Below, piece after piece: positions 1 through 62,583 of a stretch of DNA of 64,000 nt. This stretch comes from Candidatus Bipolaricaulota bacterium. Its GTDB lineage: Bacteria; Bipolaricaulota; Bipolaricaulia; UBA7950; UBA9294. Positions within the stretch are counted from its first letter, which is position 1, and each line of letters begins with the position of its first letter. The notes under the pieces were generated by a model. That model did not search any database. It was not told where the DNA came from and saw only the letters and a list, made by a program, of their open reading frames with translations. The stretch lies in NCBI GenBank assembly GCA_023132915.1, contig JAGLXM010000075.1, positions 1,165 to 65,164 on the forward strand, in the 5' to 3' direction. The translations under genes were made by a program, and so were the position numbers.

Positions 1-1
1 G

Positions 2-187
2 CAAATCAGGGACCGGGGGATAGAGGCGTTGGCTAAAGCCCTGGGACCCGTGGGTATGGTTCGTTTTCTTCAGCAATTCGATACCGGAAGCGGTGACTAC
101 ACACATGATCGAGAGCAATGGCTGAAAGAAATTAGCGTCCGAGACGCAGTGGGAGAAATCAAGAGGCAACGCGGAAAATCGAGTTAG
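2..187 (+). CDS. 3' end of a small TA-associated protein, cut by the window edge; paralog of ORF 41237..41452
   Basis: Frame open from the window edge to TAG 185-187. Translation ..ALGPVGMVRFLQQFDTGSGDYTHDREQW.. aligns with ..HLGPAKATRFWIALGGGAGDYLQIKETL.. of 41237..41452. Confidence 0.45.
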   Translation, partial: QIRDRGIEALAKALGPVGMVRFLQQFDTGSGDYTHDREQWLKEISVRDAVGEIKRQRGKSS

Positions 188-239
188 CTAACCGTCCTAC
201 AAGGTAGCCTAACGTTCATTCCTCAGGTTCTTTACGGAG

Positions 240-660
240 CGTACTCTACCCACTACCGAGGTGTTCCATGACCCATGACCCATCACTCACCGCCCTTGGA
301 CTGTCGACTATTGACTCAAGACTCCCGACTGTCTTGATCACCGGTGACTATCAGGAGTATTATGATAAGGTATATGGCAGGGAGTGAATGAGCTTGATTA
401 GAGCGGTAGGGCAGTTAGGCACTGGCCGCTAGCGGCAAGGTAGCAATCAGTCGTCAACACTTAGCCTATTGCTTAAAGCTGATAGCTAAAAGCTTTAACC
501 CAATGAACCCCTGCCCCGTGCAATGACGGAAAATAGATTATTTCACGGGGCTACGAACTCCATGAACCCAACAAGCCACGAACTACGCACTGCAAACTAC
601 CAACCACAAACTGAGAACCAGGAACTCCGGACCCTGGGCATCGGACTGAATGGGTGCGTG
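240..660. repeat. Composite low-complexity intergenic region made of short 7-9 nt periodic word arrays
   Basis: 267-291 catgacc catgacc catcact cacc. 475-496 aaagctgatagctaaaagcttt. From 551, ctacgaac tccatgaac ccaacaagc cacgaac... These are reverse-complement relatives of the modules at 61378-61550 and 63501-63760. Confidence 0.6.
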
Positions 661-781
661 TAATGAGTGATTTGTGATGGCAACGAGCGAAAAACTGAGG
701 AATCACAAGGATTTGAAGACTGGAGGGGTAATTCTGTTCTCTGGCGTAGATATCGGTATTGCAGAGACCTGAAAAGAAAAC

Positions 782-1636
782 ATGTTGAGAAACATTAAGT
801 TCTTGAATGGATCTAACGCAGTTCCCCCGACTGTTATCCAGCCGTCTCGTGGGCTGCTCTCTCTGAAGCTAGGCGAGCTTTGGCGGTATCGCGAACTACT
901 TTATTTTCTCACCTGGCGGGATGTAAAGATTCGCTATAAGCAAGCCGTCCTTGGGTTTCTGTGGGCGTTCATCCAACCTTTCTTAAAGATGGTTGTCTTC
1001 AGCGTGGTTTTTGGAGGGTTGGCGAAGATGGACTCGGAAGGATTTCCCTATCCCATCTTTCTCTACGCTGGCCTTCTCCCTTGGCAGTTCTTCGCCGACG
1101 CAGTGAATCGGAGCGGACAGAGCATCGTCAGCGAAGCCAATCTGATCACCAAGGTCTATTTCCCCAGGATTATCATGCCGGTAGCCTCGGTGGGGGCGGC
1201 GCTTGTAGACTTCGGGATCTCGTTTGGGATATTGATCGCTATGATGTTTTATTTCCAGCTGAGTCCCAGCCTCTCGATTCTGATGGTGCTACCCCTCGTT
1301 TTGATAACAATTCTTGCCGTCCTTGGTGTGGGAATATTGGTGAGTGCCCTAAACACTGCTTATCGTGATTTCCGGTACGCTCTCCCATTCCTCGTCCAGA
1401 TCTGGATGTTCTTAACCCCGGTTATATACTCAGTTAAAATCATCCCGGAAAACTGGCGGTGGCTAATTTTACTGAACCCTATGGCTGGCATTGTCGACGC
1501 CTACCGGTCGGCAATTTTAGGAAAGCCGTTTGCATGGGGTAATCTTGGGATCTCATTGGGGATAGCCACGATCATGTTCCTGATCGGGCTGGCATATTTT
1601 CGCAAAACAGAGAGGTATTTTGCTGATGTTGTGTAG
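782..1636 (+). CDS. wzm: ABC-2 type polysaccharide/O-antigen export permease (Wzm/TagG/KpsM-like)
   Basis: 284 aa, multi-TM. N-terminal ..ELWRYRELLYFLTWRDVKIRYKQAVLGFLWAFIQP.. is the typical ABC-2 permease signature. Paired with wzt downstream. Confidence 0.9.
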   Translation: MLRNIKFLNGSNAVPPTVIQPSRGLLSLKLGELWRYRELLYFLTWRDVKIRYKQAVLGFLWAFIQPFLKMVVFSVVFGGLAKMDSEGFPYPIFLYAGLLPWQFFADAVNRSGQSIVSEANLITKVYFPRIIMPVASVGAALVDFGISFGILIAMMFYFQLSPSLSILMVLPLVLITILAVLGVGILVSALNTAYRDFRYALPFLVQIWMFLTPVIYSVKIIPENWRWLILLNPMAGIVDAYRSAILGKPFAWGNLGISLGIATIMFLIGLAYFRKTERYFADVV

Positions 1637-1646
1637 CGCAAAGGCG

Positions 1647-1669
1647 GACCGATGACCGAGGACAGGTGA
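1647..1669. repeat. Left arm of the inverted repeat bracketing the four-helix-bundle ORF
   Basis: GACCGATGACCGAGGACAGGTGA (heptamer-periodic GACCGAT/GACCGAG/GACAGGT) pairs at 19 of 23 positions with 2044-2066. Confidence 0.65.
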
Positions 1670-1679
1670 CCGAAAACAG

Positions 1680-2090
1680 ATGTCCACCACATACAAGTTC
1701 CAGGATCTGCGGGTGTACAAGTTAGCATTGGAGTATGTGGATACCGTGTACAAGTTGAGCGGGAGCCTGCCGCAGTCGGAGCACTTTAATCTCCGATCGC
1801 AACTGGAACGAGCAGCAACTTCTGTGGTGCTAAACATCGCAGAAGGGTCAACGGGGCAAAGTAATGCAGAACAGAACCGTTTTCTAGGGCTAGCACTGAG
1901 ATCTTACTTAGAAACGATAGCCTGTCTTGACATTATTGGACAGCGAGGCTACCTAGCGAGTAATGCAACTACAGAAGTAAGGAAACTGGGGCATGAGCTT
2001 TTCGTCAAGCTGCAGTCTTTCCGGCGGGCTTTGAAGGCTCCCCTCTCCGGTCCTCGGTCTTCAGTCTCCCATCAGGAGGTCGAATCATGA
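1680..2090 (+). CDS. Four-helix-bundle protein (23S rRNA intervening-sequence protein family, PF05635-like)
   Basis: 136 aa. FQDLRVYKLALEYV...LRSQLERAATSVVLNIAEGS...RFLGLALRSYLETIACLDI matches the family pattern. Its stop overlaps the ATG of the wzt remnant (ATGA). Confidence 0.85.
   Translation: MSTTYKFQDLRVYKLALEYVDTVYKLSGSLPQSEHFNLRSQLERAATSVVLNIAEGSTGQSNAEQNRFLGLALRSYLETIACLDIIGQRGYLASNATTEVRKLGHELFVKLQSFRRALKAPLSGPRSSVSHQEVES
2044..2066. repeat. Right arm of the inverted repeat bracketing the four-helix-bundle ORF (inside its 3' end)
   Basis: TCTCCGGTCCTCGGTCTTCAGTC is complementary to 1647-1669 (19/23). Confidence 0.65.
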
Positions 2091-2239
2091 CCGACACAGC
2101 TATCAGAGTCGAGAACCTCTCCAAACGCTACCGCATCGGCCAATACGTTGGCAGCGGTGCTTCCAATTGTCTCAGGCCTTGGGGGTTGTCGAGCGAGGAG
2201 CACAAGGTGATTGGTGATATGGTTGGGGAGGAAGAATAG
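2087..2239 (+). pseudogene. 5' remnant of a wzt allele (first ~25 codons), then unrelated sequence to a stop
   Basis: MTDTAIRVENLSKRYRIGQYVGSGA.. versus intact Wzt MSNNIAIRVENLSKRYRIGQYVGSGA.. The nucleotide match gagaacctc..aaacgctaccgcatcggccaatacg..ggcagcggtgc is near-identical to 3207-3256. Confidence 0.75.
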
Positions 2240-2241
2240 GA

Positions 2242-2604
2242 ATGGTTACCCGGATCAAGAAAGTCGATCGCTTAGTGATCCAAGAAATTGTGGATCGCAT
2301 AGTTGCTTCTGTTCACCCGGAGAAGATCATCCTTTTCGGCTCCTACGCCTATGGCCAGCCCCACAATGATAGCGACCTCGACATTCTTGTTATCGTGGAG
2401 TCATGTCTTCCCCGATACAAGCGAGCCGTGCCCATCTACAACTCCTTGGCTGGGTTGCTCATACCCAAGGACGTGGTTGTGTATACGCCGGAGGAGGTCG
2501 AGGCCTGGAGCAATGTCCCGCAAGCGTTCATTACAACCGTGATGAATAAAGGAAGGATTCTTTATGAAAAACAGCAAAGCCGACCTGGTTCGCGGATGGC
2601 TTGA
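2242..2604 (+). CDS. Nucleotidyltransferase-domain protein (MNT-type antitoxin)
   Basis: 120 aa. ..LFGSYAYGQPHNDSDLDILVIV.. is the GS-X-DxD minimal nucleotidyltransferase motif. Overlaps the HEPN partner. Confidence 0.85.
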   Translation: MVTRIKKVDRLVIQEIVDRIVASVHPEKIILFGSYAYGQPHNDSDLDILVIVESCLPRYKRAVPIYNSLAGLLIPKDVVVYTPEEVEAWSNVPQAFITTVMNKGRILYEKQQSRPGSRMA

Positions 2605-2974
2605 GAAAGCAAGAAGAGATCTTCTTACAGCGGAGAGAGGGCTAAACTCTGCGGAGCCGTTTACGGATATAGTATGCTTCCACGCCCAGCAAGCGACAGA
2701 GAAGCACTTAAAGGCCTACTTGCTTTGGCATGGAATCGAATTCCCCAGGACACACGCCCTTGAAGACCTCGTGCTTCTTGCGGCTGAGAAGGATGCTGAC
2801 TTCGCACTGCATAAAGACGAGGTGACAATGCTTACCCCTTACGCGGTGGAGACTCGTTACCCCGAGTTCGAAGAGCCTTTGCTGGAGGATGCAAGAGAGA
2901 TGGTTCGTATTGCAAGAGGAATCCGAGACTTTGTGTTGGTGAAGCTGCCCGAAACGCTTACAGGCACGGAATAA
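2564..2974 (+). CDS. HEPN-domain protein (toxin partner of MNT)
   Basis: 136 aa. ..CFHAQQATEKHLKAYL...PRTHALEDL.. is a HEPN R-x4-6-H-like motif. Overlaps the MNT gene by 41 nt. Confidence 0.85.
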   Translation: MKNSKADLVRGWLEKARRDLLTAERGLNSAEPFTDIVCFHAQQATEKHLKAYLLWHGIEFPRTHALEDLVLLAAEKDADFALHKDEVTMLTPYAVETRYPEFEEPLLEDAREMVRIARGIRDFVLVKLPETLTGTE

Positions 2975-3046
2975 TGACGTATGAGGTAGTATCATGCCAC
3001 CGCTTGTTGCAGCTAGAATTTTGTGGGAGATGGAAGGTGAATTCTG

Positions 3047-3125
3047 ATCCGCAATTCACATTTCGAAACTGCCGTTTTCCTCTTGCGATTCGAAATTCGC
3101 TTTTCGCAATTCGAAATTGGAGCTT
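3047..3125. repeat. Low-complexity repeat upstream of wzt (GCAATTCGAAAT-type words)
   Basis: ccgcaattcacatttcgaaa .. gcgattcgaaattcgc ttttcgcaattcgaaattgg, with repeated TTCGAA cores just 5' of the wzt start. Confidence 0.45.
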
Positions 3126-3179
3126 TTCAATCCTCAATGCATATCTCAACGAATATAACAAACGGAACAAATCAGACTA

Positions 3180-4535
3180 ATGAGTAACAATATTGCCATC
3201 CGTGTTGAGAACCTCAGCAAACGCTACCGCATCGGCCAATACGTCGGCAGCGGTGCGCAATACAAGACCCTGCGCGAGAGCCTGACCAATGCTGTCTCCG
3301 CGCCCCTGCATTGGCTACGCCAGACAGGAGACAGAAGACGGAAGACCGATCTCCCGTCGCCAGCCCCCCGTCTCCGGTCCTCTGTCGCCGGTCAGCCGTC
3401 TACCGACGGCTACATCTGGGCCCTCAAGGACGTTTCTTTCGAGGTGGGACACGGCGAGGTGGTGGGCATCATCGGTAGAAACGGTGCGGGGAAGAGTACG
3501 CTTCTAAAGGTGTTGACCCGTATCACGGAGCCCACCGAAGGGCGGGCGGAGCTAAGCGGCCGTGTGGGGAGTCTGCTGGAAGTAGGGACGGGATTTCACC
3601 CTGAACTCACCGGGCGAGAGAATGTATACTTGAGCGGTGCGATTCTTGGGATGGCACGAAAAGAGATTGATCGGAAGTTTGACGAGATTGTCGACTTCTC
3701 CGGAGTGGAGAAGTTCATTGATACGCCGGTCAAGCGCTATTCCAGCGGTATGCGCGTCAGGCTCGGGTTTGCGGTGGCTGCCCACCTGGAGCCGGAGATT
3801 CTATTGATAGATGAAGTTCTGGCGGTGGGAGACGTAGCGTTCCAGAAAAAATGTCTAGGGAAAATGGAAGATGTGGCCCGGGGTGGCAGAACTGTGCTTT
3901 TTGTGTCACATAATATGGGCATGATAACCATTCTCTGTGAAAAAGCGATATTACTAACGGAAGGGCGTATTGACTTTATGGGGCCAGCTCAACAGACCGT
4001 AAGCACGTATTTGGCTAACTTTAGCGCAGATGCTGGCCTGAAAAGGAGATGGAGTTTTGAAGAAGCCCCTGGCGAAGAGAATGTCAAAATAAGAAGCGTT
4101 GCGATAACTGATCATCTGGGTATTGAGAAACCGTATTTTTCGACCGCTGAACCGATATTCGTTACGATAGAGTATTGGGTTTTAGCTGATGACATTCCAG
4201 TCAACGTAGGATTCAGTTTGCTTGACAAAGAAGATAATTGGGTTTGTGCGGTCGGCAATTATGAGGAGACAAGATCAAAGCCAATTCGAAAGAGTGGATT
4301 ATACAGGTCGAAATGCACAATTCCTGGGAATTTGTTGAATAGTGGCAGGCATTCAATCACAGTGACGGCAGTAAGAAATCTTACAGATCTTCAGGTGAGA
4401 ATATCTCATTGTGTTGCCTTTGAAGCAGTGGACGATCGTCGAGTTCACCCGTACTCTGGTAGATGGGGAGGAATTATAAAACCCGAATTTGAGTGGCATA
4501 GCGAGAAGGTTGGCGATGTTGGAGGAGAGGAATAG
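3180..4535 (+). CDS. wzt: O-antigen/polysaccharide ABC exporter ATP-binding protein Wzt with C-terminal carbohydrate-binding-type extension
   Basis: 451 aa. Walker A GRNGAGKST, signature YSSGM, Walker B LLIDEVLAVGD, then ~180 aa of beta-rich C-terminal domain (..VKIRSVAITD..FVTIEYWV..NVGFSLLDKE..). Confidence 0.9.
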   Translation: MSNNIAIRVENLSKRYRIGQYVGSGAQYKTLRESLTNAVSAPLHWLRQTGDRRRKTDLPSPAPRLRSSVAGQPSTDGYIWALKDVSFEVGHGEVVGIIGRNGAGKSTLLKVLTRITEPTEGRAELSGRVGSLLEVGTGFHPELTGRENVYLSGAILGMARKEIDRKFDEIVDFSGVEKFIDTPVKRYSSGMRVRLGFAVAAHLEPEILLIDEVLAVGDVAFQKKCLGKMEDVARGGRTVLFVSHNMGMITILCEKAILLTEGRIDFMGPAQQTVSTYLANFSADAGLKRRWSFEEAPGEENVKIRSVAITDHLGIEKPYFSTAEPIFVTIEYWVLADDIPVNVGFSLLDKEDNWVCAVGNYEETRSKPIRKSGLYRSKCTIPGNLLNSGRHSITVTAVRNLTDLQVRISHCVAFEAVDDRRVHPYSGRWGGIIKPEFEWHSEKVGDVGGEE

Positions 4536-4566
4536 GTACTTTGAATCTCCATCCGGAAGGCGAGGA

Positions 4567-5781
4567 ATGAATACTAATAAACGTCTTTCTGTGCATCATA
4601 TCGGGGGAAGGTCTGGGAGTAGAGCGTTTCCCGTTTTAAGGAGGTTCGAAGAAGACATTATAAATGTGCTCTACGATGCCGATCCTGACTGTCTTGCGCA
4701 AATCCAGGAGAGAAATCAAAACCTCGGATCAGAACTTCATGTTCTGCCATATTGCTTGGGTGATGCCTGTAAACAAGCTCTGTTCAATATTAACTACGAC
4801 CCATATACCAGTTCACTCTATGACCCAAACCCTGACTACAATTCATTCTATAGCACTCAGAGGGACCATGACTACATTTTTTCAGAAGCCACTAGGGTCA
4901 TGGAGAAACGTCGCGTTGAGACTGTGAGCATAGACTACATTTTCCAATCAAAAAACGTTCCAATGCCGCCACCTGATTTTCTTTCGATCGATACGCAGGG
5001 ATCAGAATACGACATACTACTGGGAGCGAAAGAGACTCTAGAATCAAGTGTCGTAGCATTGGTTATCGAGGTTGAGTTTCATCCAATCTATAGAGGTCAA
5101 AGACTCTTTGGGGACTTGGTAAAACTACTGTCCGAGCAAGGATTTGACTTTGTAAGGTTTCTTCATACGGGCGAGTTGTCCCCATTCAGAGCCCCGATTG
5201 GCCTCCGTGGTGAAGGGTTTCACATATGGGCTGAGGCCCTTTTCTTCAGACGGATAGATAATATGGATAGAATTGGAGACGAACTTAGACGCTACGTCAT
5301 GTTGAGAAAACTAGCCTTCATAGCTATCATATTTAACCAATTTGAATATGGCTTGCAATGTTTGAGCCGATGCAGAGCCCTAGGGATTCAAGATTCAATT
5401 GTGGAGGAATTAGAGGATCTCTCCTATTGCAAGTTCTTGAGGGATCTTGAAACGAAAATGAAAGGGATGCCAGTAGTCTTCCCCGAGACATTTGCTTCAA
5501 AATACACATTTGAGGCAAGTAAAGCACGCTTTGAAAGGTGTTTTGCTCATACTAACACAGGAGTGATACGCAGTATCAAAGCAGTACTGAAGCCGATTCC
5601 CATCCTGTTTCCGTTACTAAAGGGGATTAAACAAGGATTCATCAAGGTAGCTACTGCTGTTAAGTCGATTTCGTTGAAGAGATATTCTGAGGTTGAGGCT
5701 CTTTTGATTAGTTACGGCTTAAAGAGTCAAGCGGAGACACTTCGGGAGAATAGGGTTGTTCAATCGCAATTCTGTGAATAG
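4567..5781 (+). CDS. FkbM-family methyltransferase
   Basis: ..HHIGGRSGS.. and ..PDFLSIDTQGSEYDILLGA..ALVIEVEF.. motifs. Paralog of 14571..15788. The track ORF begins at 4489, but ATG 4567 has an RBS-like ggaaggcgagg and matches the paralog's length. Confidence 0.8.
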   Translation: MNTNKRLSVHHIGGRSGSRAFPVLRRFEEDIINVLYDADPDCLAQIQERNQNLGSELHVLPYCLGDACKQALFNINYDPYTSSLYDPNPDYNSFYSTQRDHDYIFSEATRVMEKRRVETVSIDYIFQSKNVPMPPPDFLSIDTQGSEYDILLGAKETLESSVVALVIEVEFHPIYRGQRLFGDLVKLLSEQGFDFVRFLHTGELSPFRAPIGLRGEGFHIWAEALFFRRIDNMDRIGDELRRYVMLRKLAFIAIIFNQFEYGLQCLSRCRALGIQDSIVEELEDLSYCKFLRDLETKMKGMPVVFPETFASKYTFEASKARFERCFAHTNTGVIRSIKAVLKPIPILFPLLKGIKQGFIKVATAVKSISLKRYSEVEALLISYGLKSQAETLRENRVVQSQFCE

Positions 5782-5918
5782 TTGTCGTTTTTTGGCCCTT
5801 TTGCGCTCAGTCTGGAGCAGAATCGCCGGAAAAGCGTAAAGCGATCTCCAGCCATTTCCAGCCCAGATGAAACGATGCCGATAATGCTAGCTAGCTTCAA
5901 TCTCAAGGAGTTACGATA

Positions 5919-7109
5919 ATGTCCCACTCACAACAGTACCTTAAGCAAGTAGCTCAGATTGCACAAGCTATCGAGCATGAAACCGTGGAAAGAATCGCAG
6001 TAGGTCTGGGTCAGTTGCGCGACAGGGGCGGGCGGTTGTTCCTGTTGGGAGTAGGAGGGGGCGCTGCTAACTGCAGTCACGCCGTCAACGACTTTCGGAA
6101 ACTTACCGGTATTGAGGCCTATAGCCCTTGCGACAACGTCGCAGAGTTGACCGCTCGGACCAACGACGAAGGATGGTCTACGGTGTTCGAGGCCTGGCTG
6201 CGAACTAGTAAAGCGAACGAGAAGGACGCGGTGTTCGTGTTCTCTGTCGGGGGTGGCGACGCCGATCGCGATGTGAGCGTTAATATCGTTCGTGGTCTAG
6301 ACGAAGCAAAGCGTCGCGGCCTAACAATTTACGGAATTGTGGGCCGGGACGGAGGATATACCAAGCAAGTGGGTGACGAGGTGATTGTAGTGCCAATGGT
6401 GGATTCGGGTCACGTCACTCCACACACAGAGTCCTTCCAAGCAGTCATCTGGCACTGTATTGTCTGCCATCCCAGTCTTATGATCCAAGAGGGCAAGTGG
6501 GAGAGCTTGGCTACAACCAAGGTCTCAGCACCTCTGAGCCGGGCGGTGTTTCTGGATCGGGATGGCGTTATCAACCTCGCAGTGCTGCATAATGGCCGTC
6601 CCTACCCCCCATCTTCAGTCGATGAACTGGAGTTCCTGCCAGGAGTTTCTGAAGCGATCAATGCGTTGCATCAAGCTGGTTTTCGCATAATCGTAGCGAC
6701 GAACCAACCGGATGTTGCTACGGGAGTGCAGCGACGTGAAGTAGTGGAGGCTATACACGAACGCATCCGCCGTGCGTTCCCGATTGACGACATCAAAGTC
6801 TGTTATCACGTCGATCAGGACGGCTGCACATGCCGAAAGCCGAAGCCGGGAATGCTCTTGGAAGCGGCGGAAGAGTGGTCACTGAACCTCGAGCAATCAT
6901 TCATGGTAGGCGACCGCTGGCGTGACATAGAGGCCGGCCGAGCTGCGGGGTGTAGAACTATTCTGGTCAAGAGCAACTACGCTGAGCAACAGGCTGGAAA
7001 GCCTGACGCAATTGTTAGTTCATTGCTGGAGGCGAGTGCTTTTATTCTGACAAATAGCGTACAGGATACCCCAGCGGGAGGTAAACTATGCCAGATCTCA
7101 GAGATGTGA
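5919..7109 (+). CDS. Fusion of a SIS-domain phosphoheptose isomerase (GmhA-like) and D,D-heptose 1,7-bisphosphate phosphatase (GmhB-like)
   Basis: N-terminal half LFLLGVGGGAANCSHAVNDFRK (SIS). C-terminal half VFLDRDGVIN..VATNQPDVA..CYH..CTCRKPKPGM..MVGDRWRDIEAG (HAD/GmhB with Zn-site cysteines). Confidence 0.8.
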   Translation: MSHSQQYLKQVAQIAQAIEHETVERIAVGLGQLRDRGGRLFLLGVGGGAANCSHAVNDFRKLTGIEAYSPCDNVAELTARTNDEGWSTVFEAWLRTSKANEKDAVFVFSVGGGDADRDVSVNIVRGLDEAKRRGLTIYGIVGRDGGYTKQVGDEVIVVPMVDSGHVTPHTESFQAVIWHCIVCHPSLMIQEGKWESLATTKVSAPLSRAVFLDRDGVINLAVLHNGRPYPPSSVDELEFLPGVSEAINALHQAGFRIIVATNQPDVATGVQRREVVEAIHERIRRAFPIDDIKVCYHVDQDGCTCRKPKPGMLLEAAEEWSLNLEQSFMVGDRWRDIEAGRAAGCRTILVKSNYAEQQAGKPDAIVSSLLEASAFILTNSVQDTPAGGKLCQISEM

Positions 7110-7813
7110 AAGTAAAAATCTTCGCGGATGGAGCTGACCTGAGTGTTATCACGCGGATGTCTAAAGATCCGCTCATCAAAGGGTTCACCACGAATCCGAC
7201 ACTGATGCGCAAAGCAAATGTGCGCGACTACCGAAGGTTTGCTCTTGAAGTTCTCAACGTTGTTCCCGATCGCCCGGTCTCTTTGGAGGTTTTCTCCGAC
7301 GATTTCTCCGAGATGGAGCAGCAGGCGCTTGCGATCGCGTCGTGGGGCGAAAACGTGTATGTGAAGATTCCGGTTACCAATACTCACGGTGAGTTTTCCG
7401 GTCCGCTGATCAAGCGGCTTTCGGCTGCTGGTGTGCAAGTCAATGTGACTGCACTGTTGACGACCGAGCAGGTTGCGAAGGTAGCAAATTGCTTGTCCGA
7501 CGACACAAAAGCCTTCGTCTCGGTTTTCGCAGGCCGTATTGCCGATACCGGCCGCGATCCGATCCCGATCATGGCGCAGGCTGTTAAGTTGTTGAGTTCG
7601 CATCCAAAGGCCAAGCTGATTTGGGCCAGCCCACGTGAGCTGCTGAACATTTTTCAGGCAGATTCTACTGGCTGCCACATTATCACTGCTACAAGTGATG
7701 TGTTGGCTAAGCTTCACCTGATTGGTAAAGACCTCGATACCTTCTCGCTCGAAACCGTTCAGATGTTTCGGCGGGATGCGCTTGAGGCTGGGTATGCTAT
7801 TGAGATCTCTTAA
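7088..7813 (+). CDS. Transaldolase/fructose-6-phosphate aldolase family protein
   Basis: 241 aa. VKIFADGADL...GFTTNPTLM...VKIPVT.. is a class 3B transaldolase pattern. Confidence 0.8.
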   Translation: MPDLRDVKVKIFADGADLSVITRMSKDPLIKGFTTNPTLMRKANVRDYRRFALEVLNVVPDRPVSLEVFSDDFSEMEQQALAIASWGENVYVKIPVTNTHGEFSGPLIKRLSAAGVQVNVTALLTTEQVAKVANCLSDDTKAFVSVFAGRIADTGRDPIPIMAQAVKLLSSHPKAKLIWASPRELLNIFQADSTGCHIITATSDVLAKLHLIGKDLDTFSLETVQMFRRDALEAGYAIEIS

Positions 7814-7906
7814 CCGAGGATGTTGTCCTGAAAGCATGATTGCCGAGGCCGACTGCGCAAATAGGTTTCGAACATCCCACTCGCGATTAAAGAAAGGGGG
7901 AGAACT

Positions 7907-8905
7907 GTGAGGAAAATCCTAGTTACGGGCGGGGCTGGATACGTAGGCTGCGTTCTTGTGCCTAAACTCTTAGATGCCGGCTATTCCGTCGTGGTCTATG
8001 ATCTCATGCTCTTCGGGTCCGAGGGGCTTCCTTCGCATCCAAATCTCCAGGTTGTCAAGGGAGATGTGAGAGATGCCGCAAGTTTTTCTACAGCGGTGGC
8101 GGGGGTTGACAGCGTGATCCACCTCGCTTCCATCTCCAACGATCCCAGCTTTGAGCTGGATCCCGCTCTCAGCAAGGCTATTAACTACGACTGCTTCGAG
8201 CCCATGATCCTGGCTTGTAAATCTGCTGGCGTAAGGCGGTTTATCTACGCTTCGACCAGCTCGGTGTATGGGGTCAGCAATGCGCCCGAGGTCACCGAAG
8301 AGCACCCGCTGGTTCCGCTTACGGACTACAATAAGTACAAAGGTCTATCTGAGCCGATCTTGCTGCGACACCAGGCGTCCGATTTCACTACAGTGATTAT
8401 CCGGCCAGCTACAATCTGCGGCTATTCTCCGCGGATGCGTTTCGATCTCAGTGTGAACATTTTGACGAACCATGCTGTCAACAAGCGGGGGATAACAGTC
8501 TTTGGAGGAAGTCAGAAGCGCCCCAACATTCACGTTGATGACATCACCGAGCTGTACGTTCAGTTGCTTGATTTCCCAGACGAGATGATTGCAGGTGAGA
8601 TATTCAATGCAGGCTATCAGAACAATACGATAGCCGAACTGGCGGAGATGGTGCGCACTGTTGTGGAGCAGGAAATGCCGGAAAAAGCGCCAATATCGAT
8701 CGAGACCACGCCAAGTAACGACCCTCGCTCATATCATGTGACCTCCAAAAAGATCGCGGAGAAGCTTAGTTATGTGCCCAAGAGAACAGTCGAAGATGCT
8801 GTAAGAGACATATGTAACGCGTTCAAGGCGGGTAAGCTACTGAACAGCCTTGAAGACGATCGGTACGTGAATGTGAAGACGATAAAGAAGATCGGTCTGA
8901 AATGA
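7907..8905 (+). CDS. NAD-dependent epimerase/dehydratase (extended SDR)
   Basis: 332 aa. [11 protein letters not shown] Rossmann motif, YxxxK as YNKYK. GTG start. Confidence 0.8.
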   Translation: MRKILVTGGAGYVGCVLVPKLLDAGYSVVVYDLMLFGSEGLPSHPNLQVVKGDVRDAASFSTAVAGVDSVIHLASISNDPSFELDPALSKAINYDCFEPMILACKSAGVRRFIYASTSSVYGVSNAPEVTEEHPLVPLTDYNKYKGLSEPILLRHQASDFTTVIIRPATICGYSPRMRFDLSVNILTNHAVNKRGITVFGGSQKRPNIHVDDITELYVQLLDFPDEMIAGEIFNAGYQNNTIAELAEMVRTVVEQEMPEKAPISIETTPSNDPRSYHVTSKKIAEKLSYVPKRTVEDAVRDICNAFKAGKLLNSLEDDRYVNVKTIKKIGLK

Positions 8906-27011: not shown

Positions 27012-28069
27012 TTTCATTGGCAAAGGGATTCCCAGTGAACAAACCTCTTATCATTCGCGCCGACGCAAATACTCATATAGGCACCGGCCACTTAATGCGC
27101 TGTCTGGCTCTGGCTCAGGCTTGGAAAGATTCTGGTGGAGAAGTTGCCTTCATCACCGCTTGTGAAAGCGACGGTTTGCTGCAGCGCCTTTTAGACGAAG
27201 GGTTTCAAATCGTTACTGTGGAGCGATCTTATCCCGATCCTGCTGATTTGGAAGCCACCTCTCAGGTTCTAGCGGCACATCCAAACGCATGGGTGGTGTT
27301 GGATGGGTATCACCTTGACGAAGTCTACCAGAAACAGGTAAAAGAGGCTGGCCATCCGCTGCTCGTGATAGACGATATGGCTCACTTAGAGCACTACTAC
27401 GCGGATATTGTGCTGAACCAGAATCTGCATGCAGCGCAGTTGCACTACTCCTGTGAGCCCTATACCCAGCTTCTGCTTGGTACCCAATACGTGCTTCTTC
27501 GACGTGAGTTCCTGGAGTGGCAGGACTGGAAGCGGGAGATTCCAGAGGTGGCGCGGAAAGTGCTGGTTACACTGGGCGGTGGCGACCCTGACAACGTAAC
27601 TCTTAAGGTAGTCCGAGCACTGCAACAAGTAAACGTGGACGATCTTGAGACGGTAGTCGTCGTTGGTGCCAGCAATCCGCATTTTCGAGAACTTCAATCC
27701 GCAATCCGCAATCCGCAATCCGCAATCCGTCTTGTCCAAAACGTTACTAACATGGCGGAATTGATGGCCTGGGCCGATGTGGCGATTTCTGCGGGGGGGA
27801 GTACCTGCTGGGAGTTGGCGTTTATGAGATTACCCAGTGCGATTTTGGTTTTGGCAGAGAATCAAGAAGAAACAGTACGAATGTTGACGGAGCGAGCGGT
27901 TTTTCTCAGCCTTAGAGATGGACACAACACCCAGTTACAAGATATTGCACAAGCACTTACACATTTACTGCTGAACCATGAGATTCGAAGAAAACTAAGT
28001 CAAAAGGCCTCTCTTTTGCTAGATGGCTTAGGGGCCCTTAGGGTTATAGAAGCTTTATCTGGAATTTAA
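27008..28069 (+). CDS. pseG: UDP-2,4-diacetamido-2,4,6-trideoxy-beta-L-altropyranose hydrolase, PseG-like
   Basis: 353 aa. LIIRADANTHIGTGHLMRCLALAQ.. and ..ISAGGSTCWELAFMRLPS.. (GT28-C-like). Start codon uncertain (TTG in the track). Confidence 0.75.
   Translation: MISLAKGFPVNKPLIIRADANTHIGTGHLMRCLALAQAWKDSGGEVAFITACESDGLLQRLLDEGFQIVTVERSYPDPADLEATSQVLAAHPNAWVVLDGYHLDEVYQKQVKEAGHPLLVIDDMAHLEHYYADIVLNQNLHAAQLHYSCEPYTQLLLGTQYVLLRREFLEWQDWKREIPEVARKVLVTLGGGDPDNVTLKVVRALQQVNVDDLETVVVVGASNPHFRELQSAIRNPQSAIRLVQNVTNMAELMAWADVAISAGGSTCWELAFMRLPSAILVLAENQEETVRMLTERAVFLSLRDGHNTQLQDIAQALTHLLLNHEIRRKLSQKASLLLDGLGALRVIEALSGI
27695..27729 (+). repeat. Perfect tandem heptanucleotide CAATCCG x5 inside the pseG-like CDS
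   Basis: caatccg caatccg caatccg caatccg caatccg, encoding ..QSAIRNPQSAIR.. . An extra copy lies at 27673-27679. Confidence 0.95.
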
Positions 28070-40696: not shown

Positions 40697-40797
40697 GGAA
40701 ATTGTTGAGTAGTTGAGTGGGAAAAGCGAAGGAACGGAGGGCCAGGTGAAGAGGGAAATGGTTAAGTGGAGGAGTGGTTGAGTGGGAGGAATGGATG
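40687..40797. repeat. GTTGAGTRG-word low-complexity repeat; left terminal inverted repeat of the gmd|fcl insertion
   Basis: agttgagtagggaaattgttgagtagttgagtgggaaaagc .. ggttaagtggaggagtggttgagtggg. Its outer part is the reverse complement of 42006-42039. It supplies the gmd stop codon. Confidence 0.65.
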
Positions 40798-41262
40798 AGT
40801 CCACGTCGTCTATATCTAGACACCAGTGTCTATAACCGACCCTTCGATGGCCTCTCACAAGCACGAGTCTGGCTCGAAGCGTTAGCCTTCGCTACTATAC
40901 TGCAGATGATTGAATTGGGCGGTGTAGAATTAGTAAGCTCTGAGGTATTAGAGTTTGAGAACAGCAGGAATCCCTTTTCCCATAGAAGGGCGTGGGTAAG
41001 CTTTTATCTGAGTTTGGCCAAAGATTACCAGGAATTGGATGAGTCGATCCGTAAGCGAGCGCAAGGTTTGGAAAGCAAGAGATTGGAACCACTCGATGCT
41101 TTACATCTGGCCTGTGCAGAGGGAGCTGAGGCTGAATATTTCATAACCTGCGATGATCGGATCATAAAGAGATACCAAGGGGAAGCACTGAAAGTGATGA
41201 ACCCCGTGAATTTTGTGATCAGTGAGGTGATAGGAGATGGCGGAGATCAAGGTGAACAGTGA
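40795..41262 (+). CDS. PIN-like domain protein (putative toxin)
   Basis: About 155 aa. LYLDTSVYNRPFD.. N-terminal acidic motif, ..DALHLACAEGAEAEYFITCDDRIIKR.. C-terminal PIN-like motif. Confidence 0.6.
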   Translation: MSPRRLYLDTSVYNRPFDGLSQARVWLEALAFATILQMIELGGVELVSSEVLEFENSRNPFSHRRAWVSFYLSLAKDYQELDESIRKRAQGLESKRLEPLDALHLACAEGAEAEYFITCDDRIIKRYQGEALKVMNPVNFVISEVIGDGGDQGEQ

Positions 41263-41452
41263 TCAGGAGATCCTTCGAGAGGCCGAAGAGGTGCTGCGGG
41301 TACATCTGGGTCCGGCCAAAGCGACTCGCTTTTGGATCGCTCTAGGCGGTGGGGCTGGAGACTACCTGCAAATTAAAGAAACGCTCTTCAAAGGCGAGAC
41401 TGTCGATACCCTGTACGAGAAAATAGCAGAGCAGAAGGGGGAGGAGAGATAG
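41237..41452 (+). CDS. Small partner protein of the PIN gene (putative antitoxin, uncharacterised family)
   Basis: 71 aa. Overlaps the PIN gene by 26 nt. A paralogous 3' end occurs at 2..187. Confidence 0.45.
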   Translation: MAEIKVNSDQEILREAEEVLRVHLGPAKATRFWIALGGGAGDYLQIKETLFKGETVDTLYEKIAEQKGEER

Positions 41453-41535
41453 TTAAGTAGGAAAATAGTTGAGTGGTTATGTGGGGCAGTGGAACTATTC
41501 AACGATTTAACTAATCAACCACTTAACTAATCCCA
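41451..41535. repeat. Imperfect palindrome of GTTRAGTRG words immediately 5' of the four-helix-bundle pseudogene
   Basis: agttaagtaggaaaatagttgagtggttatgtgggg ... ttaactaatcaaccacttaactaatccc. The two arms are reverse complements (tagttgagtggtt versus aaccacttaacta). Confidence 0.65.
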
Positions 41536-41536
41536 G

Positions 41537-41911
41537 ATGAAATCGACGTCGACCTTTGAAGATCTCGAAGTCTGGTAAAAGGGAAGAGAGTTAAGGAAAG
41601 ACTTTTCGCAATTAGTCAGGCGACTTCCCCCTGATGAGAAGTTTCGACTAGCCGACCAGATTCTCCGTGTCTCGCGATCGGTTACGGCCAACATAGCCGA
41701 AGGATACGGCAGGTTTTACTATCAAGAGAACATCCAGTTCTGCCGTCAGGCCAGAGGCTCATTGTTTGAGTTGGTGGATCACCTTACTGTAGCCTTTGAC
41801 GAGGGTTACGTCGATGAGGAGAAGTTTGGAGGGTTTAGAGAGCGAGTCTTCGAGATTATTCGTATACTAAATGGCTATATCAAGTATCTGAAAGGAAGGA
41901 AGAACAGTTGA
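41537..41911 (+). pseudogene. Four-helix-bundle protein gene (23S rRNA IVS protein family) with an in-frame TAA at codon 14
   Basis: MKSTSTFEDLEVW*KGRELRKDFSQLVRRLPPDEKFRLADQILRVSRSVTANIAEGYGRFYYQENIQFCRQARGSLFELVDHL.. . Absent from the ORF track because there is no Met after the stop. Confidence 0.8.
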
Positions 41912-41920
41912 GGACAACAC

Positions 41921-42040
41921 AGTCGAGTGGGAAAATGGTTAAGTGGTTATGTGGGGGAACGGTCTTACTTGACTACTCAACTACTCGACAATTTTACCTT
42001 GCACTGCTTTTCCCTACTCGACTACTTAACTACTCAACTC
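41921..42040. repeat. Imperfect palindromes of GTTRAGTRG words 3' of the four-helix-bundle pseudogene; right terminal inverted repeat of the insertion
   Basis: gtcgagtgggaaaatggttaagtggttatgtggggg .. cttacttgactactcaactactcgac .. gcttttccctactcgactacttaactactcaact. 41927-41961 is a direct repeat of 41457-41491. Confidence 0.65.
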
Positions 42041-42051
42041 TGTGCTCATAG

Positions 42052-43056
<1,005 letters not shown>

Positions 43057-59267: not shown

Positions 59268-59499
59268 GTTTTCCCGAGATGCGCCTAAGAGGAAGGTCCT
59301 TAAAGCTTTCAAGGAGCTGAGGTTTGAGATCGTTAGAGAGGCTGACCACATTGCCCTCAGGCGACATAACCCTGATGGGTCCACGACGCCGATGACCATC
59401 CCCAACCATCGAACCTATAAAAGCAGCACCCTGCGGGAGATCTTGACTCAAGGCAGAATTCCCAGGGATGACTTTCTAACGGCTTACTACAAATCATGA
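59260..59499 (+). CDS. hicA: HicA-family toxin (YcfA-like)
   Basis: 79 aa. ..KRKVLKAFKELRFEIVREADHIALRRHN..MTIPNHRTYKSSTLREILTQGRIPRDDF. Overlaps hicB by 8 nt and the capD-like start by ATGA. Confidence 0.7.
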   Translation: MSKFSRDAPKRKVLKAFKELRFEIVREADHIALRRHNPDGSTTPMTIPNHRTYKSSTLREILTQGRIPRDDFLTAYYKS

Positions 59500-61352: not shown

Positions 61353-61377
61353 CAATTGCGGTTTACTTGATGTAGGG

Positions 61378-61497
61378 GTTCATTGAGTTCGTAGGGTTCA
61401 TTGGGTTCGTTGAGTTCATTGAGTTCGTAGGGTTTATGGGGTTCGTTGAGTTCATTGAGTTCGTAGAGTTGGTGGAGTTCATTGGGTTCGTAGGGTT
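61378..61497. repeat. Tandem array of about 13 degenerate 9-mers (GTTCRTWGR)
   Basis: GTTCATTGA GTTCGTAGG GTTCATTGG GTTCGTTGA GTTCATTGA GTTCGTAGG GTTTATGGG GTTCGTTGA GTTCATTGA GTTCGTAGA GTTGGTGGA GTTCATTGG GTTCGTAGG. Followed by a GAGTCGG-type heptamer module at 61507-61545. Confidence 0.9.
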
Positions 61498-61670
61498 AAA
61501 AACACTGTCAGGAGTCGGGAGTCCAGAGTCGAGTGCCGAGATTCAATGTTCACTAGATTTTCAAGCTAGATAGAAGGATTTGAACTAGGGAAACTGGACG
61601 TGGTAAGATAAGTTTCCAGGGATGGTAGAGATTAGGATAGAATATCGTGAATCGGCGGAGGTGGGAAAGT

Positions 61671-61889
61671 ATGTCTGATCAGGTAGATCTTGGAACACTC
61701 CTTAAGCGGGTTGATTCCTTGGAAGGGGAGATAGGGCGGCTTAAGCGCGACTTGCTCCGCAGTTTAGTAGTCCAGCCACGGGGAAAGAAGGTGAAATCCT
61801 TGTTTGGTAGTGTACAGGGCGGTGATGTGACTGAAGAGATGATTGAGGAAGCGAAGCGGACCCTGTTTCGGCCCCTGGAAGACTTGTAG
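61671..61889 (+). CDS. Small coiled-coil protein, putative VapB-type antitoxin
   Basis: 72 aa from ATG 61671 (RBS ggaggtggg). Ends 5 nt before the PIN gene. Confidence 0.5.
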   Translation: MSDQVDLGTLLKRVDSLEGEIGRLKRDLLRSLVVQPRGKKVKSLFGSVQGGDVTEEMIEEAKRTLFRPLEDL

Positions 61890-61894
61890 ATCGT

Positions 61895-62293: not shown

Positions 62294-62583
62294 TCATGTA
62301 CTGTTTTAACTCTATAAGCTCTGCATAGCAGCGCTGAATCGGCGGGCTCTTGAGTCTTCCCATGTCTGTGGGGTCATGCCTTGGCACTGACCGTTGATCG
62401 CTGAATGCTGATGGCGAAAGCCAAAAGCTTATTGCTTGAAAAGGAAAGGCCATGATCGTTGCCCCGTTTTTTGTGTCCTTGCTTGTGAGCTTCTTTTGCG
62501 TTCCGATTCTGATCACCCGGTTAAAACGAGCGGGGATCTCCGGAAGCGACATCCATAAGTCTAGCTAGCCGCGTGTCTCCGAG

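Follow-up and report, generated by a model that had tools for sequence, protein, structure and literature searches.

A PF05635 gene between inverted degenerate-heptamer arrays at a wzm–wzt junction: a probable mobile cassette of the rRNA intervening-sequence type in an mRNA operon

Introduction

Intervening sequences (IVSs) of 23S rRNA and the small ORF that some of them carry have been known since about 1990, with their origin, mobility and protein function left unexplained; sporadic distribution and horizontal transfer were proposed earlier in this literature (PMC4990558). In the Coxiella 23S rRNA IVS, three GACAGAT heptamers and one GACAGAA stand just before the ATG of S23p, the terminal stem has 28 bp, RNase III makes its 5' cut at the first heptamer repeat, and the number of heptamer copies differs between strains (PMC4990558).

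Another body of work concerns heptamer repeats: arrays of three to five or more degenerate heptamers, often in convergent pairs, which lie between co-directional operon genes and are sometimes intragenic. Cyanobacterial STRR heptamers were reportedly described by Mazel et al. in 1990. Geobacter metallireducens has paired heptanucleotide-repeat sites about 100 nt apart between operon genes, which were read as sites for IHF/HU or a "global regulator" (PMC2700814), and inverted GGGAATC arrays in Xanthomonas were read as G-quadruplex-forming sequences in a study that found heptamer simple sequence repeats over-represented in many bacterial genomes (PMC4692102). Both papers cover the repeats alone and draw no tie to PF05635 genes, rRNA IVSs or mobility.

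Here we describe a locus from a Candidatus Bipolaricaulota bacterium, located in a stretch of 64,000 nucleotides that was analysed as a whole (the window), where a PF05635 gene, whose product we refer to as IVP, is bounded by complementary heptamer arrays. With the rRNA IVSs of Coxiella (helix 45) and Leptospira it shares the PF05635 ORF and complementary termini that close the ORF in a stem-loop. With the Coxiella IVS it also shares tandem GACAGAT-type heptamers directly before the ATG (here at 1647–1674). Unlike in the rRNA IVSs, the host RNA is an mRNA, and the site is the intercistronic wzm–wzt spacer; and the ORF is intact and strongly conserved at this locus, with predicted translational coupling to the next gene, but decaying and apparently not translated in Coxiella. 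The array layout outlined above for Geobacter, Xanthomonas and STRR repeats is also that of the arms at this locus, and class 2 of Geobacter (TCTCCGTS) and the GGACCGG elements share their sequence type with these arms, but the Geobacter pairs enclose no ORF. The topology of an IVS had been suggested by a first-pass annotation of this DNA; the suggestion is upheld and strengthened by the same heptamer type before the S23p start in Coxiella (PMC4990558). Our literature search found no paper tying non-rRNA IVP genes to inverted heptamer arrays.

Results

The element has an ABC-2 permease gene on one side and an ABC ATPase gene on the other and is not in helix 25 or 45 of 23S rRNA, and a permissive Rfam scan of window positions 1–5000 gave no match, rRNA included. 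All features listed here are on the plus strand. The upstream host gene, wzm (782..1636), matches PF01061 with an E-value of 6e-21; the NCBI label of the identical protein is ABC transporter permease, Candidatus Bipolaricaulota bacterium. It is followed by the 5' arm (1647..1679), four and a half degenerate heptamers (GACCGAT, GACCGAG, GACAGGT, GACCGAA and the partial AACAG) that run up to the start codon of the IVP ORF (1680..2090, 136 amino acids). The 3' arm (~2039..2073, with matches to the minus-strand pattern at 2041–2073) comprises five heptamers complementary to the 5' arm, among them TCTCCGG, TCCTCGG, TCTTCAG and TCTCCCA, and ends in TC. Next comes a 5' remnant of wzt (2087..2239), whose homology to wzt covers 27 codons from the start and then gives way to unrelated sequence. 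Further downstream are a toxin-antitoxin-type pair (2242..2974) of an MNT nucleotidyltransferase (2242–2604, PF18765/PF01909) and a HEPN protein (2564–2974, PF05168), and then debris of older elements recognised by alignment to loci L096 and L108, namely AATTCGN-type heptamer arrays (3040–3136) and the final ~45 nt of a B-type IVP gene (3137–3179). The latter abuts the start of the intact downstream host gene, wzt (3180..4535), an ABC ATPase (PF00005, E-value 2e-23) with a Wzt_C-like domain (weak match to PF14524). An ORF-less hairpin of the same heptamer type as the arms lies within this gene (3318..3407) and encodes the variable linker ..GDRRRKTDLPSPAPRLRSSVAGQPS.. of the protein. No plus-strand promoter-like or terminator-like sites were found between wzm and wzt.

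The 136-residue four-helix bundle is the sole ORF between the arms. Its assignment to the 23S-rRNA-IVS protein family in the first-pass annotation is borne out by matches to PF05635 (92.2 bits against a cutoff of 33.8, E-value 2.9e-26) and TIGR02436 (85.4 bits against a cutoff of 24). The AF2 model (pLDDT 85.8) has four helices, the domain extending over residues ~8–118, plus a disordered tail (residues 119–136), which is encoded by the 3' arm. Foldseek searches initiated with this model returned 2GSC (TM 0.90) and 2RLD (TM ~0.9), the PF05635 structures of XCC0516 and BT_0352, respectively, followed by Avd of diversity-generating retroelements (DGR), with a probability of 1.0 and TM ~0.84 to 4DWL and 8UB7. 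Each of the entries 2GSC and 2RLD holds five chains. At the sequence level IVP matches 2GSC with an E-value of 2e-13 in phmmer; the conserved motif of PF05635 is NIAEG.

The stop codon of the ORF had been described as coupled through ATGA to a 5' remnant of wzt, and the alignment agrees: positions 2087–2167 are 89% identical to 3195–3256, and the ATG of the remnant overlaps the IVP stop. The same ATGA junction runs into full-length wzt in eight related loci (L003, L008, L016, L027, L031, L039, L091 and L100).

A repeat search reproduced the reported pairing of 1647–1669 with 2044–2066 at 19 of 23 positions, returning 23 nt that are 83% complementary and 374 nt apart. Overlooked at first was that the arms are degenerate heptamer arrays, GACNGRN four times upstream and the complement five times downstream, and that they are longer than was stated, reaching 1679 on the 5' side and spanning ~2039–2073 on the 3' side. 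Their local inverted-alignment score is 26, compared to a mean of 13.9 and a maximum of 21 in shuffled sequences (0 of 300 shuffles reached 26), and the arm–arm duplex has a predicted energy of -36 kcal/mol (z -3.2; 1 of 500 shuffles was equally good). The minimum free energy (MFE) structure of RNA 1637–2100 includes the stem that closes the ORF, as had been anticipated, and the partition function gives this stem a pair probability of ~0.94, while the folding energy of the whole region is unexceptional (z -1.68). The earlier claim that the entire ORF lies in the loop stands for the start codon and the domain; the last codons and the stop codon are outside the stem. The 3' arm itself occupies codons ~121–132, beyond the end of the four-helix domain near residue 118. 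Homology to Bipolaricaulota relatives L004–L007 starts precisely at 1646.

The periodic pattern GACNGNNGACNGNNGACNG has 16 matches in the 64-kb window, where 0.22 are expected. All of them are at this locus except for two overlapping matches that form a single site (63509–63534). Heptamer arrays of other types are present elsewhere in the window.

For comparison we collected about 170 related loci, 82 of which contain an IVP of the same PF05635 subfamily (subfamily A) and come from Chloroflexota, Acidobacteriota, Thermodesulfobacteriota, Methylomirabilota and other phyla. Autocorrelation at period 7 rises to 0.41–0.47 within ~120 nt of the gene borders over a background of 0.25 in 81 of these loci, and periods 6 and 8 stay flat across the same borders. 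A GACNG array upstream together with a CNGTC array downstream was found in 40 of the 82 loci and in partial form in 29 more, compared to about 0.5% expected by chance; the reversed polarity did not occur in any of the 82. We considered heptamer arrays as a generic intergenic feature; for subfamily A, the positional profile rules this out, as does the restriction of this heptamer type to the present locus.

RNAduplex energies computed on flanks of 100–130 nt were dropped, since shuffled sequences give -30 to -60 kcal/mol through long loose duplexes, and the local inverted-alignment score was used in their place. On this scale the two arms of one locus score 26.2 and cross pairs 18.5 (79 loci; permutation p < 1e-4), and the own-arm score is above all 100 shuffles in 43 of the 79. 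The MFE structures contain a median of 32 pairs between the flanks, versus 11 with shuffled flanks. A few subfamily-A loci have no inverted arms, or have direct ones.

In 51 loci the 3' array follows the stop codon; in 15 it lies within the ORF tail, where all three frames are represented. It is therefore a nucleic-acid feature rather than a coding one. Protein-coding constraint on the 3' arm was rejected on the same counts, the tail being also disordered in the model. Mismatches between arms comprise 65 G·U and 70 A·C (54 loci). An excess of G·U would mark selection on the sense-strand RNA; there is no such bias, hence no support for RNA-only selection. The complementarity is thus strand-symmetric, as for DNA-level inverted repeats or copy-homogenised arms, and judging by these counts it is not specifically the outcome of sense-RNA selection.

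Neighbouring genes are mostly co-directional with the subfamily-A gene (68 of 74 upstream, 62 of 76 downstream). The order wzm–IVP–wzt recurs across phyla in about 24 of 80 loci, and among 27 loci with IVP-A at this junction ATGA overlaps are seen in nine, with IVP reading into wzt in another five. Had related genomes shown the gene as an ordinary operon member lacking the repeats, the first-pass view would have failed; the recurrent wzm–IVP–wzt loci do carry repeats.

The statement that wzm and wzt are normally adjacent is confirmed by relatives with empty junctions and a 9-nt spacer; nine loci without an insert were retrieved (L101–L107, L109 and L110). Occupied wzm|wzt junctions hold IVPs of types A, B, C, F or K, an ORF-less version or a GxxExxY gene. 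For example, L096, whose Wzm is 90% identical to that of the window, holds IVP-B; L131 holds IVP-C; L122 contains an ORF-less derivative with A-type arms; and in L163 the junction is taken by a GxxExxY gene that has arms of its own. In L088 a truncated IVP-B gene is interrupted by another, nested PF05635 gene, and the same debris sequence as at window positions 3040–3179 lies downstream. Conversely, IVP genes of subfamily A are also located at ABC permease/ATPase, wza/wzc, nitroreductase gene/cofD and glyS/dnaG junctions, a variety that rules out a function specific to wzm and wzt. Pairwise identities of IVP and Wzm are poorly correlated (Spearman 0.18, 325 pairs), and in 86% of pairs IVP is the better conserved of the two. 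Presence and absence, subfamily swaps at one junction, nested insertions and an IVP phylogeny decoupled from that of Wzm bear out the earlier proposal of a mobile cassette. Neither the element nor the Pfam matches in the 12 kb of L001 include a transposase or recombinase. No target-site duplication could be recognised between filled and empty sites, which are diverged (Wzm at most 76% identical).

Ten or more further PF05635 subfamilies have arms with different heptamers that are complementary within each element. In a complementarity matrix of 11 elements from nine subfamilies, diagonal scores range from 18 to 58 and off-diagonal scores from 10 to 22, so that the covariation of arms for which the first-pass annotation had suggested looking is found; elements of one subfamily cross-match at 19–35. 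Different heptamers that stay complementary within an element amount, at the level of these alignments, to covariation of whole arms, and the arm architecture is conserved family-wide, with the heptamer varying by IVP subfamily. Three PF05635 copies were seen in the source genome, two in the window and one in L001, and the two other copies (L001 478–858 and window 41537–41912) likewise bear their own complementary arms of different sequence. The second element of the window (41443..42045, plus strand), with GTTAAGT/ACTTAAC-type arrays flanking its IVP-E ORF (41537–41912), lies between gmd and fcl, the genes for GDP-mannose dehydratase and epimerase. Its ORF has an in-frame TAA at 41576, and the element has an inverted score of 22 (z 3.6) and also a direct repeat of 47 points. 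On cyanobacterial plasmids, IVP genes are flanked by perfect heptamer arrays of further types, e.g. eight TAGGGAG paired with five TCCCTAC. Two of four such copies (Calothrix and Nostoc) are antisense to the flanking operon, and in the Pseudanabaena copy the arrays are direct, not inverted.

Arrays of heptamers are not always accompanied by IVP. They are present around toxin-antitoxin cassettes and, even where the genome has an empty junction, in the Wzt linker. A Wzt alignment shows a hypervariable linker at the site of the hairpin 3318–3407. Elements are nested in each other's arms or ORFs in L088, L003/L004 and the window (40697–42045). Heptamer arrays may therefore be the primary entity, with IVP merely the commonest cargo. 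L003 and most wzm|IVP|wzt loci have no MNT/HEPN pair; the pair is a later insertion outside the IVP element, and it was this insertion, with recombination, rather than the IVP element that gave rise to the wzt 5' remnant. The present locus is composite: MNT/HEPN and the debris of two older IVP elements part the cassette and its 27-codon stub from the functional wzt.

Discussion

We propose, with a probability of about 0.6, that the element is an IVS-type mobile cassette in an mRNA operon, i.e. a promoterless PF05635 gene between inverted degenerate-heptamer arrays. Presence and absence, replacement, ORF-less forms, nesting and decoupled phylogeny together suggest that it behaves, or has behaved, as a mobile element carrying its own arms. 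The cassette would have entered the 9-nt wzm–wzt spacer seen in relatives without the insert, oriented with transcription, and would be transcribed within the wzm–wzt mRNA. Its arms would pair into a stem of ~23–30 bp, looping out the IVP coding region and placing the end of wzm beside the start of wzt. By analogy with the homologous 23S rRNA IVSs of Coxiella and Leptospira, this stem may be an RNase III substrate, which would make the insert an RNA domain that is self-contained, can be excised and is tolerated by the host operon. Ribosomes translating IVP would pass through the 3' arm and stop at the wzt start codon (ATGA); in subfamily A their passage could melt the stem and couple wzt translation to that of IVP. 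Most likely, because the heptamer type tracks the protein subfamily, IVP recognises its own heptamer arrays, as RNA or DNA, in the service of maintenance or spread of the element.

A serious, though less probable, alternative is that the arms act at the DNA level, as terminal inverted repeats (TIRs) or as hairpin or cruciform sites for a recombinase or transposase supplied in trans, with IVP perhaps as a specificity factor and RNA folding as a by-product. On this view, what really moves or serves as a landing pad is the heptamer hairpin, whose cargos include IVP, the GxxExxY nuclease and toxin-antitoxin pairs. The strand-symmetric complementarity of the arms (65 G·U against 70 A·C) fits such a role, as do the antisense insertions in Calothrix and Nostoc, the ORF-less hairpins of the same type in L122 and at 3318–3407, the nesting in arms or ORFs (L088, L003/L004, window 40697–42045) and the presence of another cargo gene with its own arms in L163. 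Pairing of heptamer type with protein subfamily resembles that of transposases with their TIRs, and the Geobacter sites are likewise paired ~100 nt apart between operon genes (PMC2700814). However, within the 12 kb of L001 no recombinase was seen in or beside the element, the diverged filled and empty sites reveal no recognisable target-site duplication, and known TIRs do not resemble degenerate heptamers in tandem. Moreover, subfamily A shows a strong bias towards the orientation of host transcription, and the sole experimentally characterised relatives undergo RNA processing (PMC4990558).

Recruitment by the host is improbable. In such a scenario the stem and the ORF would form a regulatory module that sets the wzm:wzt ratio through mRNA processing or translational coupling, and IVP would be export-related. 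The recurrence of wzm–IVP–wzt in many phyla (~24 of 80 loci), the frequent ATGA coupling to wzt and the conservation of IVP above that of Wzm in 86% of pairs could be so explained; the same subfamily is, however, located at five or more unrelated operon junctions and absent from many close relatives, the wzm|wzt junction is also occupied by unrelated subfamilies, an ORF-less version and a nuclease gene, and the cassette in the window no longer adjoins a functional wzt. Chance pairing of two independent, functionless simple-sequence repeats born by slippage, for which one could invoke the over-representation of heptamer repeats in many bacterial genomes (PMC4692102) and the several unrelated heptamer stretches in the window, is highly improbable and already contradicted by a polarity fixed over 82 loci with none reversed, by a periodicity peak exactly at the gene borders, by own arms that beat cross pairs, by a diagonal-dominant matrix across subfamilies and by a heptamer type restricted to this locus within 64 kb.

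The mobile-cassette reading can also be set against other compact elements. With integron cassettes the element shares small promoterless cargo (including toxin-antitoxin pairs), imperfect palindromic bounds and accumulation at one locus. Some arms match GTTRRRY, but on by-eye inspection the complementary halves flank the ORF, unlike the single 3' hairpin of attC, and most of the many heptamer types do not fit. By-eye inspection also showed no attI and, in the 12 kb of L001, no integron integrase. MITEs, REP elements and Rickettsia palindromic elements (RPEs) are short palindromes scattered in intergenic regions, and RPEs are also inserted in frame within genes. Like them, the element has ORF-less forms beside ORF-bearing ones and shows presence/absence polymorphism, and the hairpin in the Wzt linker is comparable to RPEs. 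Unlike them, it has tandem heptamer arms instead of unique TIRs and no near-identical copies within 64 kb; no transposase or RAYT was identified, and no target-site duplication was seen between the diverged filled and empty sites. The four-helix-bundle fold is shared with Avd of DGRs, a basic pentamer that serves as a scaffold and binds both the reverse transcriptase and the RNA of the DGR; unlike for Avd, however, the NIAEG motif and heptamer arms are not features of DGRs, sequence identity is only 11–15%, and no reverse transcriptase domain was found among gene calls within 6 kb on either side of the element.

Together with the roughly 170 comparison loci, this locus shows rRNA IVSs to be the visible tip of a much larger population in which the same gene and the same kind of heptamer arms occur in mRNA operons of many phyla, where the copies display insertion polymorphism and arm-level covariation. 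The IVS question can be moved to an operon junction, which is more tractable than an essential rRNA. In addition, the element's own heptamer array becomes a candidate ligand for a family of proteins of which two structures have been solved but no function is known. There are practical consequences for annotation as well. Gene callers routinely stretch IVP and neighbouring ORFs into the arms, which produces spurious low-complexity N- and C-terminal tails, and operon predictions blind to such cassettes will misjudge intercistronic processing.

Three separate oddities are linked here: the excess of heptamer repeats, the paired "regulator sites" and the IVP paralogues. A bolder generalisation, which we regard as doubtful at present, is that PF05635 proteins are sequence-specific binders of tandem heptamers and, together with their inverted arms, constitute a very large unrecognised class of mobile cassettes in rRNA helices and intercistronic junctions. 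If true, it would explain the origin of ORF-bearing 23S rRNA IVSs, the tens of thousands of intra-operon IVP paralogues, the bacterial heptamer excess (STRRs, Xanthomonas GGGAATC pairs and Geobacter "global regulator sites") and the in-frame ORF-less heptamer hairpins such as the one in wzt.

Complementary heptamer arrays enclose the IVP gene

The wzm gene (782-1636, plus strand; PF01061) is followed, after a 43-nt spacer, by an ORF at 1680-2090 (plus strand) that matches PF05635 (E 2.9e-26), the four-helix-bundle "23S rRNA IVS protein" family (IVP; IVS, intervening sequence). A repeat search recovered unchanged the inverted repeat of the first-pass annotation (1647-1669 and 2044-2066; 23 nt, 19/23 complementary, 374 nt apart). 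Both arms are heptamer arrays: degenerate units GACCGAT GACCGAG GACAGGT GACCGAA on the 5' side (1647-1679) and five degenerate units complementary to them on the 3' side (approximately 2039-2073). This periodic pattern matches 16 times in the 64-kb window, where 0.22 matches are expected, nearly always at the wzm/IVP locus. None of 300 shuffles attained the local inverted-alignment score of the arms (26), and one of 500 equalled their duplex energy (-36 kcal/mol); over the full 464 nt, the folding energy does not stand out (z -1.68). The ORF had been placed entirely within a loop closed by this stem. The minimum free energy (MFE) structure of RNA 1637-2100 does close the ORF with the stem (pair probability about 0.94 in the partition function), but the ORF runs on through the 3' arm, which encodes tail residues 119-136; these are disordered after four confident helices in the structure model. 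The IVP stop shares bases (ATGA) with the start of a 50-codon ORF, which opens with the wzt 5' stub of the first-pass annotation; this stub (2087-2167) is 89% identical to 3195-3256.

A profile search in which each species was represented by a single genome gave 427 relatives, and the best 80 (49-72% identity), mostly from Chloroflexota with others from at least eight further phyla, were analysed as subfamily A. Across 2 kb on each side, period-7 autocorrelation leaves its background level (0.25) only close to the gene, reaching 0.41-0.47 in the nearest 120 nt or so; periods 6 and 8 are flat in the same profile. An upstream GACNG array with a downstream CNGTC array occurs in 40 of 82 loci (about 0.5% expected by chance), and in 29 more a single side is clear or a hairpin is present; none of the 82 shows the opposite polarity. 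Arms pair better with their own partners than with arms of different loci (26.2 vs 18.5; permutation p < 1e-4), the inverted score exceeds all shuffles in 43 of 79 loci, and MFE structures contain a median of 32 inter-flank pairs vs 11 with shuffled flanks. The 3' array is mostly non-coding (51 loci) and is found in all frames; in many database IVP gene calls, translated arms form spurious tails (TEDGRQK or SPVSGPRSSV, for example).

Arms covary with protein subfamily

In other PF05635 subfamilies (29-43% identity to subfamily A) the heptamers differ in sequence, yet remain complementary within each element. Upstream and downstream units are TTGGTTN/NAACCAA in type B (comparison loci L096, L108), GGTTTTA/TAAAACC in type C (L131), TAGTGGG/CCCACTA in type D (L001 478-858, same genome as the window), GTTAAGT/ACTTAAC in type E (window 41537-41912), GTGAAAA/TTTCAC in type F (L142), GTAATGAG/CTCATTAC in type G (L099), AGTCATGAGTCT/AGACTCATGACT in type H (L094 601-930) and AAGGTTAAGG/CCTTAACCTT in type I (L105, L107). 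When inverted scores were compared all against all (11 x 11), the diagonal dominated (18-58 vs 10-22 off the diagonal), with cross-matches (19-35) only between members of the same subfamily. The proposed check, whether PF05635 copies each carry their own covarying complementary arms, thus gave a positive answer.

Cyanobacterial plasmids carry TAGGGAG x8 with TCCCTAC x5 between nrdB and nrdA (Nostoc), CAGGTGA with CTGTCAC between cas6 and cas4 (Anabaena) and TTAGCTG with AGCTAAA (Calothrix); Pseudanabaena, with arrays in direct orientation, is the sole exception among these copies. Both cas6-cas4 insertions, in Anabaena sp. 90 pANA02 (L170) and Pseudanabaena galeata pPg_01 (L171), lie in CRISPR-Cas loci. 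In the former, cas1d is annotated downstream and the 3' array is contained in the 5' end of cas4 as annotated; in the latter, the flanking arrays are AAAAGCT x15 and AAAAGCC x10.

Heptamer arrays also occur elsewhere in the window. The gmd-fcl junction (40697-42072) contains a PIN toxin gene with a small partner ORF (40774-41452), then a second IVP gene (41537-41912; in-frame TAA at 41576), parted by GTTGAGT/GTTAAGT-type arrays, and three direct copies of an approximately 35-nt unit (GGGAAAATGGTTAAGTGGTTATGTGGGG) near 40753, 41461 and 41931. Long arrays at 61353-62583 and 63498-63700 (the GTTCATT/GAGTTCG type occupies 61366-61500, with further arrays at 61503-61551, 62385-62433 and 63498-63588) lie on either side of two neighbouring ORFs, a small one (61647-61889) and one of 132 aa (61895-62293). 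The two sit between an ORF of 618 aa (59496-61352) and one for a predicted membrane protein of 305 aa (62584-63501). Upstream of wzm (window 246-700; L001 1-126 and 2100-2440) are CCATGAC, CGAACTA and TGACT arrays, a hairpin CCCCGTG..CACGGGG (about 511-556) and an approximately 55-nt segment (320-376), present three times at 82-84% identity, that reads as a C-terminal peptide (..ITGDYQEYYDKVYG..*). A perfect (AATCCGC)x5 array occupies 27679-27741. Within wzt, a GACNG/CNGTC-type hairpin (3318-3407) encodes the hypervariable Wzt linker, which homologues encode by other heptamers: AACCAAT (L108), CTTAAAACC-like (L131) and CCATCAG (L008, L101).

Evidence for a mobile cassette

A metagenome scan with Wzm as query yielded 80 further loci. 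In relatives with Wzm 71-76% identical, wzt begins 9 nt past the wzm stop (TAG GAGTAAAAT ATG), and these empty sites bear out the claim that the two genes are normally adjacent. At 78-92% Wzm identity the same junction holds IVP-A, IVP-B, IVP-B broken by another IVP or, in L122, A-type arms around a core of about 200 nt lacking an IVP gene; more distant relatives have IVP-C, IVP-F, decayed IVP or a GxxExxY/PDDEXK_3 gene. This nuclease-superfamily gene (L163 939-1373; TIGR04256, E 7e-46) has complementary CGCAGAG/CTCTGCG arms of its own, so the arms can carry cargo other than IVP. Subfamily A also occupies ABC permease-ATPase (7 loci), wza-wzc (5-6), nitroreductase-cofD (4-5) and glyS-dnaG (3) junctions. 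Among 26 wzm/IVP-A loci, IVP and Wzm pairwise identities barely correlate (Spearman 0.18), IVP being more conserved in 86% of pairs; the window and L091 share 92% (Wzm) and 77% (IVP), L012 and L014 35% and 74%. Empty or variably filled sites, varied host junctions and this decoupling together show a cassette that, arms included, is or has been mobile apart from its hosts; the first-pass annotation had raised mobility as one possibility. Neighbours are co-directional with IVP (upstream 68/74, downstream 62/76); the cassette prefers spacers between co-directional genes and is still under purifying selection.

Positions 1-8090 of the window coincide base for base with a stretch of an ENA metagenome scaffold (L001), and the same proteins occur in NCBI from a Candidatus Bipolaricaulota MAG. 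In an 85%-identical homologue (L003), the wzm stop, arm and IVP are followed by an ATGA running straight into full-length wzt, with nothing more; by this comparison the 27-codon stub (2087-2167) marks the original junction. Functional wzt is now parted from it by three later additions: an MNT/HEPN pair (2242-2974), AATTCGN-type arrays (3040-3136) and the last 45 nt or so of a B-type IVP gene (3137-3179). In L088 (Wzm 92% identical), a B-type 5' arm and 26 codons of IVP-B are broken by a further PF05635 gene (E 2.7e-17), whose arms are of AATTCGN type, after which comes the same sequence as window 3040-3179. This arrangement accounts for the window debris, and the locus is therefore a stack of nested insertions with at least one recombination between alleles. 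A short B-type stretch (..GTTGAATTGGTTG..) is kept upstream of the A-type 5' arm in L003 (1-90) and L004 (5925-5990), suggesting that an older B element at this junction was invaded or replaced by the A element.

In Bipolaricaulota contigs (window 2242-2974; L004-L007; L001 1-4300), toxin-antitoxin-type pairs (MNT/HEPN, MNT/HepT, PIN, ParE, PemK, DUF433) accumulate around IVP elements. L004 has about 3.8 kb of such genes between the wzm 3' end and the IVP 5' arm, and L005 two separate wzt 5' stubs. The 261-aa call in L005 (1183-1968), joining PF05635 to a nucleotidyltransferase domain, is probably read-through from IVP into the adjacent MNT gene, not a real fusion.

Relation to rRNA intervening sequences and proposed function

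In Coxiella, the 23S IVS combines a 28-bp terminal stem with an S23p (PF05635) ORF and, directly before the ATG, three GACAGAT plus GACAGAA in strain-variable copy number; recombinant RNase III cuts it at the first heptamer repeat (PMC4990558). Heptamer type and position are the same as at window 1647-1679. In fold comparison the window IVP is nearest to XCC0516 (2GSC) and BT_0352 (2RLD) and matches more distantly Avd, the accessory protein of diversity-generating retroelements (DGRs), a pentameric scaffold that binds RNA. We put at roughly 85% the probability that the window element belongs to a family-wide class of mobile, IVS-homologous cassettes.

No plus-strand promoter-like or terminator-like sites were found between wzm and wzt. 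The cassette would be transcribed as part of the operon mRNA, pairing of its arms would place the IVP cistron in a loop, and RNase III could cut the stem as in rRNA, making the insert a tolerated, separable RNA domain. We rate as slightly less than even the odds that the stem works by having the mRNA processed by RNase III. In subfamily A, ribosomes on IVP would run through the 3' arm and terminate at the wzt start; of 27 wzm/IVP-A/wzt loci, 9 have the ATGA overlap and five more read into wzt. B- and C-type elements end 8-24 nt ahead of the wzt start codon, without a Shine-Dalgarno sequence by eye. Because heptamer type goes with protein subfamily in different phyla and at different host junctions, IVP may recognise its own array, although specific binding to its heptamers is a more tentative proposal.

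A serious rival to this RNA reading is that the arms act at the DNA level, as recombination or landing-pad sites of which IVP is merely the commonest cargo. Among arm mismatches G·U is no commoner than A·C (65 vs 70), two cyanobacterial copies are antisense to the host operon, and ORF-less hairpins of the same heptamer type lie in frame within wzt (3318-3407). Heptamers encode the Wzt linker also in genomes whose wzm-wzt junction is empty. Toxin-antitoxin cassettes of the source genome are likewise embedded in heptamer arrays.

Paired heptamer arrays between operon genes have been taken as putative IHF/HU sites in Geobacter (PMC2700814) and as G-quadruplex candidates in Xanthomonas (PMC4692102), in neither case with a link to PF05635. 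In a literature search that covered subscription journals thinly, we found no publication tying non-rRNA IVP genes to inverted covarying heptamer arms or insertion polymorphism. Intervening sequences of rRNA with an ORF and terminal repeats are already known; what appears to be new here is an IVS-type element that lives in mRNA operons.
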